In this document: positions 11,438 through 13,103 of the stretch, piece after piece
How the letters are laid out: every line of letters begins with the position of its first letter
Position numbering within the stretch: position 1 is the stretch's first letter
From: a virus
UHGV virus genome: UHGV-0213391
Reading direction: 5' to 3' (one strand)
Length of the DNA stretch: 35,183 bases
Program-made: the position numbers and the translations under genes
The notes under the pieces: model-generated
What the model saw: the letters and a program-made list of their open reading frames with translations, nothing else
The model's database searches: none
Told to the model about the DNA's origin: nothing

Positions 11438-11595
11438 AACTGGTGCCTGAGCAGAAAGCTTTTTACAAGTACGGACGGCCTATTATGAAAAATTGTTGCA
11501 CATGTAAGTATGGAGCTTACTTTAAAATGGTTCCATGTTCCATATGCGATGAAAATTTTAGCAGCTGGGCACCGAGAAAGGAGGAAAATGAATGA
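11434..11595 (+). CDS. Small zinc-ribbon protein (53 aa)
   Basis: 'NCCTCKYGAYFKMVPCSICDE' has four Cys in C-x-C and C-x2-C pairs. ATG overlaps the previous stop; AT-rich. Confidence 0.35.
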   Translation: MKLVPEQKAFYKYGRPIMKNCCTCKYGAYFKMVPCSICDENFSSWAPRKEENE

Positions 11596-12577
11596 GCTAC
11601 ATCTTTTCGCGGGCGCTGGTGGAGGAATACTTGGCAGCGAGCTGCTCGGATTCCGCACCGTCTGCGCCGTCGAGCTCGAACCCTATCCCGCAAGCGTACT
11701 GCTCGCCCGACAGAATGACGGCCTACTCCCGCCTTTCCCGGTTTGGGATGACGTATGCACCTTTGACGGGCGACCATGGCGCGGCCTTGTTGACGTGGTA
11801 TCTGGAGGCTTCCCGTGCCAGGACATCAGCGCGGCAGGTAAAGGTGCCGGCATTGATGGCGCCCGCTCTGGACTCTGGCGGGAAATGCACCGGATTGTTG
11901 GCGAGGTACGACCTCAATACGTCTTTGTGGAAAACTCCCCAATGCTCACTGCTCGCGGGCTTGGATGTGTTCTTGGGGACCTGGCCGCGAGCGGGTATGA
12001 TGCGGAATGGATGGTGCTGGGGGCGGATGAAGTGGGGGCGCCGCATGAGCGAAAGCGCATGTGGATACTTGCTGTCAACTCCGCCGCTGGGGCAGGGCAT
12101 GAAATTTGCAACCCCGCAAGCCAGGGATTTCAGGACGGGAGAAGCCAGAAGATGGGACAATCTAGCCCGAAGCCGGAACCTGAACGACCAGATTGCAAAA
12201 TTCCCGACTCCAACCTCACGGGATTGGAAGGACAGCGGCTCCAGCCAGGGCAATCGGAAGTCCCCGAACCTGGGAACTATAGCCAGCAGATTTCCTACCC
12301 CAAGAACAAAAGGCATGTGCGGAGGAAGTGGGGCTTTTCAGAAAATGAAAGCCCTGGAAGCCGAAGGGATTGTCACGACGGAAGAGCGGAAACAGATGAC
12401 TGCGGGGAATGGTGGTCAGCTGAACCCGACGTGGACCGAGTGGCTCATGGGGTGGCCGCTAGAGTGGACCGCATTGAAGCCATTGGCAACGGACAAGTTC
12501 CGGCAGTGGCGGCAACTGCATTCCGGATTTTACTCGGTCGAATCATGAACTACAACCCCCAACTGACGCTTTTTTGA
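11588..12577 (+). CDS. DNA (cytosine-5)-methyltransferase, with apparent internal frame inconsistency (possibly frameshifted)
   Basis: SD AAGGAGG, then ATG. Motif I is LFAGAGGG, IV is GFPCQDIS, VI is ENSP, VIII is PHERKRMWI. Motif X 'AIGNGQVPAVAATAFRIL' is in the same frame. The TP(T/Q)ARD repeats and 'NPTWTEWLMGWPLEWT' lie in the +1 frame (ORF 11592..12548). Confidence 0.75.
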   Translation: MNELHLFAGAGGGILGSELLGFRTVCAVELEPYPASVLLARQNDGLLPPFPVWDDVCTFDGRPWRGLVDVVSGGFPCQDISAAGKGAGIDGARSGLWREMHRIVGEVRPQYVFVENSPMLTARGLGCVLGDLAASGYDAEWMVLGADEVGAPHERKRMWILAVNSAAGAGHEICNPASQGFQDGRSQKMGQSSPKPEPERPDCKIPDSNLTGLEGQRLQPGQSEVPEPGNYSQQISYPKNKRHVRRKWGFSENESPGSRRDCHDGRAETDDCGEWWSAEPDVDRVAHGVAARVDRIEAIGNGQVPAVAATAFRILLGRIMNYNPQLTLF

Positions 12578-12578
12578 T

Positions 12579-13103
12579 ATGGCACGTAAACCAACATCTT
12601 TAATACCGCGGACGCACCGGGAACTGTGCGAAATTGCTGAACGCTGGCTCATGGGCTCTGCCCGTTGCCGGGTGGCGATCGCGGAACCGAACTGCATCGT
12701 TACGGACGAGCAGCCCGACGCTATAGGTTTCAAGGGATCGTATAGCATCCTCGTTGAGGCTAAAACCAGCCGGGCGGATTTTTTGGCAGACCTCAAAAAG
12801 CCGTTCCGCCTCCGTCCTCAAAAGGGTATGGGGTATTGCCGATACTACATCTGTGAGCCGGGGATCATCACAGAAGATGACCTGCCGGAACGGTGGGGAT
12901 TACTGTATGTCCTCCCTGGCGGACGGGTTCGGATAGTTCGGTACAGCAGATATTTCCGTGAGGCAAACTACGCCGCTGAAAGGAGCCTTTTGACCGCATG
13001 CCTGTACATCCAGAAGCCGCTAAAAATCAATACTGTTCAAGGCAGGAAAATACAGCTCTCACCTGCATTTGGCGCAGAAGCAAAAGAGAAGGAGGGGATA
13101 TAG
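12579..13103 (+). CDS. PD-(D/E)xK nuclease-superfamily protein
   Basis: 'IVTDEQPDAIGFKGSYSILVEAKTSRADF' carries PD...E-A-K. Confidence 0.45.
   Translation: MARKPTSLIPRTHRELCEIAERWLMGSARCRVAIAEPNCIVTDEQPDAIGFKGSYSILVEAKTSRADFLADLKKPFRLRPQKGMGYCRYYICEPGIITEDDLPERWGLLYVLPGGRVRIVRYSRYFREANYAAERSLLTACLYIQKPLKINTVQGRKIQLSPAFGAEAKEKEGI

Follow-up and report, generated by a model that had tools for sequence, protein, structure and literature searches.

A phage C5 cytosine methyltransferase probably encoded as two polypeptides by co-extensive reading frames

Introduction

The virus genome UHGV-0213391, a DNA stretch of 35,183 nucleotides (nt) that is referred to here as the window, carries a gene for a C5 cytosine methyltransferase whose conserved motifs are distributed over two reading frames of the same strand. 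Our analysis indicates that this enzyme is probably encoded by two co-extensive open reading frames (ORFs), here called frame A and frame B, and that their products would associate into an active heteromeric enzyme. An original prediction, made from the window sequence, had placed motifs I, IV, VI, VIII and X in one frame and a region typical of a target recognition domain (TRD) in the +1 frame, and had offered a pseudogene, two local indel errors or unusual recoding as possible causes. The motif assignments were confirmed at their predicted positions, while the proposed causes fared less well, as described below.

Results

The two reading frames

Frame B is a complete ORF in the +1 frame. It opens at an ATG 4 nt after the ATG of frame A and closes 29 nt short of the frame-A stop codon (Table 1). 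Frames A and B are both open throughout, and the third frame has 18-19 stops across the gene. When the synonymous codons of frame A in the window gene were shuffled (n = 300), 5.9 stops were expected in the +1 frame and none of the 300 shuffles was free of stops. Together with the stops in the third frame, this shows that the openness of both frames is more than chance.

Motifs I, IV, VI, VIII and X are found together in frame A and are invariant across 74 homologues. A TRD and motif IX, which in single-chain C5 enzymes are located between motifs VIII and X, were not found in frame A. The intervening segment (residues ~165-274) is of low complexity, as originally described, and its alignment among relatives is gappy and unconserved. 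The match to the Pfam family DNA_methylase (PF00145) is confined to frame-A residues 3-168 (E = 1.2e-28), and the protein is assigned to PHROG 363. In the AlphaFold2 model of frame A, residues ~90-170 and 303-322 are ordered, the latter forming a helix with a predicted local distance difference test score (pLDDT) of 72-90, and residues 170-300 have pLDDT <50. This model matches M.HaeIII, M.HhaI and DNMT1 over ~170-200 columns that comprise the large domain only. Homologues of frame A number in the thousands, many of them from Akkermansia, and align over 97-100% of its length.

The TRD-type region is found in frame B, where the three TP repeats and LNPTWTEWLMGWPLEWT are present as originally predicted, the latter being motif IX. 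The PTP cores of the TRD modules are conserved across relatives and the number of modules varies. The middle of frame B aligns with the TRD and motif IX of gp83 of phage Maminiaina ('LPTPSARDFKGG'), and its motif IX has an in-frame homologue, 'FPEWMMGWPAGW', in RitaG and Maminiaina. Chimeric A-B-A sequences were assembled for 72 loci, and the A-B-A chimera gives one continuous alignment, covering 95% of it, with mycobacteriophage enzymes encoded in a single frame, such as RitaG. The two frame changes of the original prediction are thus present as switches of homology, from A to B at ~12075-12110 and from B to A at ~12470, although not for the causes then suggested (indels or gene decay). Since the frame-A model covers the large domain only and the middle of frame B is homologous to a canonical TRD and motif IX, the switches coincide with the small-domain boundaries of C5 methyltransferases.

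When frame B was searched alone, 4795 database proteins were matched, many of them over 100% of the frame-B length, which indicates that gene callers often choose frame B over frame A. Among the best 120 of these matches, all are without a Pfam domain except the fusions P0191 and P0218. Frame B is assigned to PHROG 1008, 'DNA methyltransferase'. A profile search of the PDB with frame B returned chance matches only (E >0.5). In one lineage, represented by protein P0191, frame B runs on into a C-terminal Methyltransf_25 S-adenosylmethionine methyltransferase domain to give a 466-residue product. In the C-terminal tail of frame B the residues K296, P297, L298, K302, W306, Q308 and H310 are each at least 90% conserved, but this conservation is largely a shadow of frame-A motif X. 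In many relatives the bases that encode 'RIWIVA' of motif VIII in frame A double as those of 'ESGLWPTP' in frame B (window positions 12041-12090), so that the first TRD module and motif VIII physically overlap.

Table 1. Coordinates of the features of the methyltransferase gene in the window
Feature	Position	Strand	Frame	Basis and remarks
Shine-Dalgarno sequence GGAGG	11580-11584	+		3 nt before frame-A ATG, 7 nt before frame-B ATG
Start box ATGAATGA	11588-11595	+		frame-A ATG, TGA before frame-B start, frame-B ATG, TGA of upstream 53-residue ORF
Frame A ORF	11588-12577	+	A	329 residues; ORF list and translation; proposed catalytic (large-domain) subunit
Motif I LFAGAGGG	11603-11626	+	A	invariant across frame-A alignments
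Motif IV GFPCQDIS (catalytic Cys)	11807-11830	+	A	invariant across frame-A alignments
Motif VI ENSP	11930-11941	+	A	translation and alignments
Motif VIII PHERKRMWI	12041-12067	+	A	translation and alignment
Low-complexity linker, residues ~165-274	12080-12409	+	A	passenger reading of frame-B TRD
WWSAEPDVDRVAHGVAARVDRIE	12410-12478	+	A	overlaps motif IX, dual constraint; nearly invariant in alignments
Motif X AIGNGQVP, then C-terminal helix	12479-12502	+	A	translation and alignments
Frame B ORF	11592-12548	+	B	318 residues, +1 frame; proposed recognition subunit
N-terminal part, residues 1-161	11592-12074	+	B	overprinted on motif I-VIII coding sequence
TRD module TPQARD	12111-12128	+	B	translation
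TRD module PTPTSRD	12204-12224	+	B	translation
TRD module PTPRTKG	12294-12314	+	B	translation
Motif IX LNPTWTEWLMGWPLEWT	12420-12470	+	B	nearly invariant in relatives
Tail ALKPLATDKFRQWRQLHSGFYSVES	12471-12548	+	B	translation

Authenticity and conservation of the layout

The exact 329-residue frame-A protein is present on at least 14 contigs, of which 10, from different sequencing runs and assemblers, were fetched. The 990-nt gene is base-for-base identical to the window in all 10 independent assemblies compared, and this refutes the local indel errors that had been suggested.

A viral sample of 80 loci with 48-64% identity and GC contents of 0.46-0.66 was retrieved with a frame-A profile. In nearly all of these, stops in the +1 frame are confined to codon 0 and to the vicinity (~10 codons) of the frame-A stop, while each gene has 9-28 stops in the +2 frame. 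Frame B of 78 genes contained a single stop, compared with 425 expected (5.5 per gene) from synonymous shuffles of frame A, and was free of stops in 77 of the 78 relatives. The +2 frame was not depleted under the same shuffles (1316 stops observed, 1118 expected). Conversely, when the frame-B codons were shuffled, 261 stops were expected in the middle of frame A in 77 genes and none was observed. The two-frame layout with both frames open was found in ~75 viral loci at 48-64% identity, and the placement of frame B in the +1 phase inside the frame-A span (11592-12548 within 11588-12577) is kept family-wide.

A reciprocal sample of 76 prophage loci was retrieved from bacterial genomes with a frame-B profile, and covered Verrucomicrobiota, Planctomycetota, Proteobacteria, Patescibacteria, Actinomycetota and other phyla. 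This sample gave the same picture, with the PCQ and GN motifs in the partner frame, and the layout recurred in ~50 prophage loci from many phyla. In all, ~150 diverged relatives, from phages and from prophages of many phyla, share the layout. The original prediction had considered that a low-complexity recognition domain might be conserved in the first frame and that the +1-frame motifs might be absent from relatives. We found that the first frame is conserved there as an open frame, not in sequence, and that the relatives do have the +1 motifs.

In Acinetobacter phage ABMM1 and Microcystis phage Mel-JY01, the protein annotated as methyltransferase is of the frame-A type and is accompanied by a fully open +1 ORF, which begins with 'MSWLFS' and contains WPTP-type repeats and 'LNPNW(V/I)EWLMG(W/F)PIGW'. 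These two proteins, which are full-length matches of the chimera, had been considered as canonical single-frame relatives, but alignment showed them to be of the frame-A type (309 vs 251 bits). Short two-frame versions of ~240 residues occur in Salmonella phage S9-5 (P22-like), Vibrio phage ZQ26, Pseudomonas phage phPA-G and an environmental myovirus. Beyond the first two found, cultured phages of four more genera share the layout. The GenBank record of Pseudomonas phage VB_PaD_phPA-G (locus L096, 1505-2233) annotates frame B as 'hypothetical protein' and omits the methyltransferase frame, and is therefore an example of mis-annotation of the family.

Selection on each frame

The window was compared with six Akkermansia-type relatives and the differences were sorted by their effect in frame A and then in frame B (S, synonymous; N, non-synonymous). 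In the N-terminal half, the per-site rates of 0.40 for SN, 0.12 for NS and 0.11 for NN differences indicate that frame A is constrained and that frame B is near neutral (NN/NS 0.87). In the middle of the gene the roles are exchanged: with rates of 0.28 for NS, 0.16 for SN and 0.155 for NN, frame B is constrained (NN/NS 0.56) and frame A is neutral (NN/SN 0.95). Purifying selection on each frame where it bears the motifs, together with the recurrence of the layout with both frames open, refutes the pseudogene proposed in the original prediction.

In a deep comparison, the fourfold degenerate third positions of frame B are free to vary in the TRD (major-base frequency 0.43). In motif IX, the frame-B fourfold positions are fixed where frame A needs them, as in GGT (frame-A W276, 100%) and CTG (E279, 100%), and frame B has ACA or ACC where each yields R295 in frame A. 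Frame-A fourfold third positions are in turn 100% fixed where motif IX of frame B needs them. This reciprocal fixation implies amino-acid constraint on both frames over positions 12410-12478, which is hard to explain if one frame only is read there. In the N-terminal half, the fourfold third positions of frame A have a conservation of 0.675 compared with a codon-usage null of 0.479, and this excess hints at some constraint on the N-terminus of frame B.

The start region and genomic context

A purine-rich sequence similar to a Shine-Dalgarno sequence is found at the equivalent position in most relatives. The frame-B ATG is located 4 nt past the frame-A start and directly behind an in-frame stop in 73 of 78 loci, and in the other five the frame-B ORF opens at an upstream ATG, 5 nt away from that of frame A. 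The Asn codon of 'NEL' is AAT and never AAC in 78/78 loci, so that an in-phase frame-B ATG is present in every locus. The start codon of frame A is ATG in 31, GTG in 22 and TTG in 11 of the 78 loci, and lies further upstream in the rest. An internal promoter was looked for and not found. In the window, the TGA of an upstream ORF of 53 residues overlaps the frame-B ATG as ATGA, which suggests that translation of the upstream gene may be coupled to that of frame B.

Window positions 12545-12800, which are mostly the first ~220 nt of the gene at 12579-13103, are 84% identical to Akkermansia phage DTMo-2021a. A YqaJ-type exonuclease is encoded upstream of the methyltransferase gene and a DnaB helicase downstream. 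On account of this identity and of the neighbouring genes, we assign the methyltransferase gene to the replication module of an Akkermansia phage or prophage.

Discussion

A reading in which frames A and B each yield a polypeptide is the most economical one, since it explains the open passenger segments, the start codon of frame B and the dual constraint at motif IX. We infer from the sequence comparisons that each ORF is translated from a start of its own and that the products assemble into one enzyme. Frame A would yield a complete large domain for S-adenosylmethionine binding and catalysis, consisting of motifs I-VIII and the motif X helix, with a disordered and freely varying linker in the place of the small domain. 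Frame B would initiate 4 nt downstream behind the shared ribosome-binding site, and would be read through an overprinted N-terminal stretch into the small domain with its TP-repeat TRD modules and motif IX. The two polypeptides would then associate into a heteromer that methylates phage DNA, in a manner similar to the alpha and beta chains of M.EcoHK31I. On balance we also favour the extension of this proposal to a phage family that spans bacterial phyla, in which an ancestral enzyme would have had its large and small domains distributed over two frames that overlap over ~0.75-1.2 kb and start 4 nt apart at one ribosome-binding site, the products reassembling as a heteromer.

Several observations weigh against two associating polypeptides. 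AlphaFold2 gives no fold for frame B alone (pLDDT 45, predicted template modelling score 0.19, from an 81-sequence alignment), which leaves an autonomous small-domain subunit without structural support. Residues 1-161, about half of frame B, would form a long N-terminal extension that is apparently poorly structured, with low AlphaFold2 confidence, and the evidence for constraint on this part is mixed, with near neutrality in the close comparison (NN/NS 0.87) set against the third-position excess in the deep one. Canonical single-chain relatives such as RitaG exist, and a single chain joined across the frames would therefore be a viable enzyme. Moreover, a rare variant, locus L099 (protein P0075), encodes some of its TRD in frame A and has stops in frame B, and is the only clear exception to the rule that both frames are open besides loci L069 and L082. 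This Akkermansia-type locus (positions 1201-2400, Logan SRR26276591), seen on two contigs, has ~100 codons of TRD modules in frame A and three internal stops in frame B.

Double programmed frameshifting, with a +1 shift just past motif VIII and a -1 shift just past motif IX, would yield one chain with motifs I-VIII, TRD, IX and X, and corresponds to the unusual recoding of the original prediction. It is in line with the single alignment of the A-B-A chimera with RitaG-type enzymes over 95% of its length, with the switch of homology at exactly these two points, and with the fact that neither polypeptide alone resembles a complete enzyme. Nevertheless, neither junction has a conserved slippery site: a heptamer of the X_XXY_YYZ type is found at the second junction in 0/77 loci, the first junction varies over 13-139 nt with no common motif, homopolymers of at least 6 occur in 6/77 loci, and the window sequence, in which folding was evaluated, has no stimulatory RNA structure at either place (z +1.33 for 12078-12170 and -0.78 for 12471-12560). 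We know of no precedent for two efficient shifts in one mRNA. Frameshifting would in addition leave unexplained the first 160 stop-free codons of frame B, the stop-free middle of frame A, the conserved frame-B ATG and the constraint on the frame-A WW..EP..R segment at motif IX, which the chimera never translates. We therefore regard recoding of this kind as unlikely and not as the best reading of the locus. An equally doubtful possibility is a mixed output, in which frame A and frame B each yield a protein and one +1 shift past motif VIII adds a fusion of motifs I-VIII, TRD and motif IX. Phages of the Maminiaina type do split their methylase into overlapping +1 ORFs (an N-terminal half and a TRD-IX-X half), and such a shift would be tolerated, the frames on either side of it being open, but the fusion would be without motif X, there is no conserved shift site, and nothing requires a fusion.

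Readings in which frame B is not a working gene are less probable still. Annotation pipelines label frame A 'DNA cytosine methyltransferase', and frame A could in principle be functional alone as an enzyme with low specificity or without a TRD, frame B being an untranslated relic kept open by composition. This is very improbable, since shuffles that preserve composition and codon usage still give 5.5 frame-B stops per gene, the middle of frame B is under purifying selection where frame A is neutral, frame-A fourfold positions are 100% fixed where motif IX of frame B needs them, and an ATG of frame B is found at the gene start in every locus. The least credible of the alternatives is that the gene is a pseudogene, or an artefact in which sequencing or assembly introduced two compensating indels. 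In isolation the out-of-frame TRD and motif IX do look broken, and the rare L099 has stops in frame B. Against this stand the 10 identical independent assemblies, the ~150 loci that share the layout at 48-64% identity, the exclusion of stops from both frames and the purifying selection on each frame where it bears the motifs.

The closest known parallel to the proposed two-polypeptide enzyme is M.EcoHK31I from E. coli HK31, which recognises YGGCCR and needs two chains, the alpha chain with motifs I-VIII plus X, and the beta chain with motif IX, whose coding sequence is inside the alpha gene but in a different frame (PMC2836561; PMC3404938). The N-terminus of its beta chain is needed for association with alpha (PMC2836561; PMC3404938), and its TRD has been assigned to alpha, although it was termed 'predicted' (PMC3404938). 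The present locus is similar in having a putative second chain in an alternative frame, with motifs I-VIII and X separated from motif IX. It differs in that the two ORFs are co-extensive (318 codons for the second vs 329 for the first) and share a ribosome-binding site, the second not being nested in the variable region, and in that the TRD-like modules are located in the second frame, the variable region of frame A being a neutral low-complexity linker. M.EcoHK31I is furthermore a restriction-modification enzyme, whereas the gene studied here is surrounded by replication genes of the phage, and no partner nuclease was seen. The locus also belongs to a large phage and prophage family, which sets it apart from M.EcoHK31I, described as a single enzyme.

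Splitting of a C5 enzyme after motif VIII or in the variable region, with ORFs that overlap in different frames, is also known from M.AquI alpha/beta (PMC3404938) and from cluster-A mycobacteriophages. In M.AquI and Maminiaina, motifs IX and X are both on the C-terminal chain, with a short overlap (~100 nt in Maminiaina), whereas in the present family motif X is in the first frame and the overlap extends over the whole gene. In Maminiaina (locus L014, 586-1615), gene 84 encodes motifs I-VIII, and gene 83, in the +1 frame, encodes the TRD, IX and X, with the ~100 nt overlap between them; an M.AquI-like split into two annotated genes recurs in many cluster-A mycobacteriophages.

RitaG gp71 (PF00145) is a single chain with the same motif set and order, the same TP-repeat style of TRD and an 'EW(L/M)MGWP.GW' motif IX. 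Unlike in our family, its motifs I, IV, VI, VIII, 'LLPTPSASD', 'FPEWMMGWPAGW' (IX) and 'GNGVCP' (X) are all in a single frame, and its +1 frame has several stops. In RitaG gp71 (locus L013, 586-1674), ~55 residues past motif VIII are of low complexity in the 0 frame, and the +1 frame there reads the TRD-like 'LLLPSPVAHPSGNSPEAHLRKKPGRSRVTDLAIIVENNLL'. This stretch may be a relic of frame switching in the clade. Among the proteins of the family, P0075 (from L099) and P0218 were considered as natural single-chain forms and rejected: P0075 is still without an in-frame motif IX and has its frame B broken by stops, and P0218, which switches frame twice, was taken on the basis of its protein sequence only for an indel variant or an assembly error. 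A Sinorhizobium prophage methyltransferase considered as a relative is an unrelated protein of ~700 residues, and M.BatI from a Bacillus prophage was considered and set aside without sequence comparison.

Passenger parts that are disordered or of low complexity are typical of overprinted regions (PMC8227390; bioRxiv 10.1101/229690). The locus resembles same-strand overprinted genes of viruses in that one stretch of bases gives two proteins in different phases, with disordered passengers, and differs from them in that neither frame is wholly new. Each frame is ancestral in one segment and a passenger in the other, so that the arrangement looks like a domain-wise partition of a single ancestral gene. 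Full-text literature searches did not find a description of a two-frame phage methyltransferase family. If the two-polypeptide reading is true, the family would rank among the longest and most widely distributed cases of conserved dual coding known from prokaryotic viruses, and the locus would be a testable case of long same-strand dual coding in which the two frames exchange the roles of driver and passenger from one segment to the other.

There are practical consequences for annotation and for experiments. Pipelines keep one frame and drop the other, and databases hold thousands of each, frame A as 'DNA cytosine methyltransferase' and frame B as 'hypothetical protein'. With single-frame gene calling, one half of the enzyme therefore goes unseen, and prediction of specificity from the TRD fails for the family. 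Any clone of frame A silently includes frame B, and activity assays will not reveal that a second product is needed unless a silent knockout of frame B is made.

The original prediction regarded the state of the gene as important for whether the phage still methylates its own DNA. Overall, the sequence data indicate that the methyltransferase gene is very probably functional, and the phage therefore probably still self-methylates. If the two-polypeptide reading holds, the number of recognition modules would be free to vary, because the other frame reads this stretch as a disordered linker only, and the design may let the number of TRD modules change without harm to the catalytic chain.

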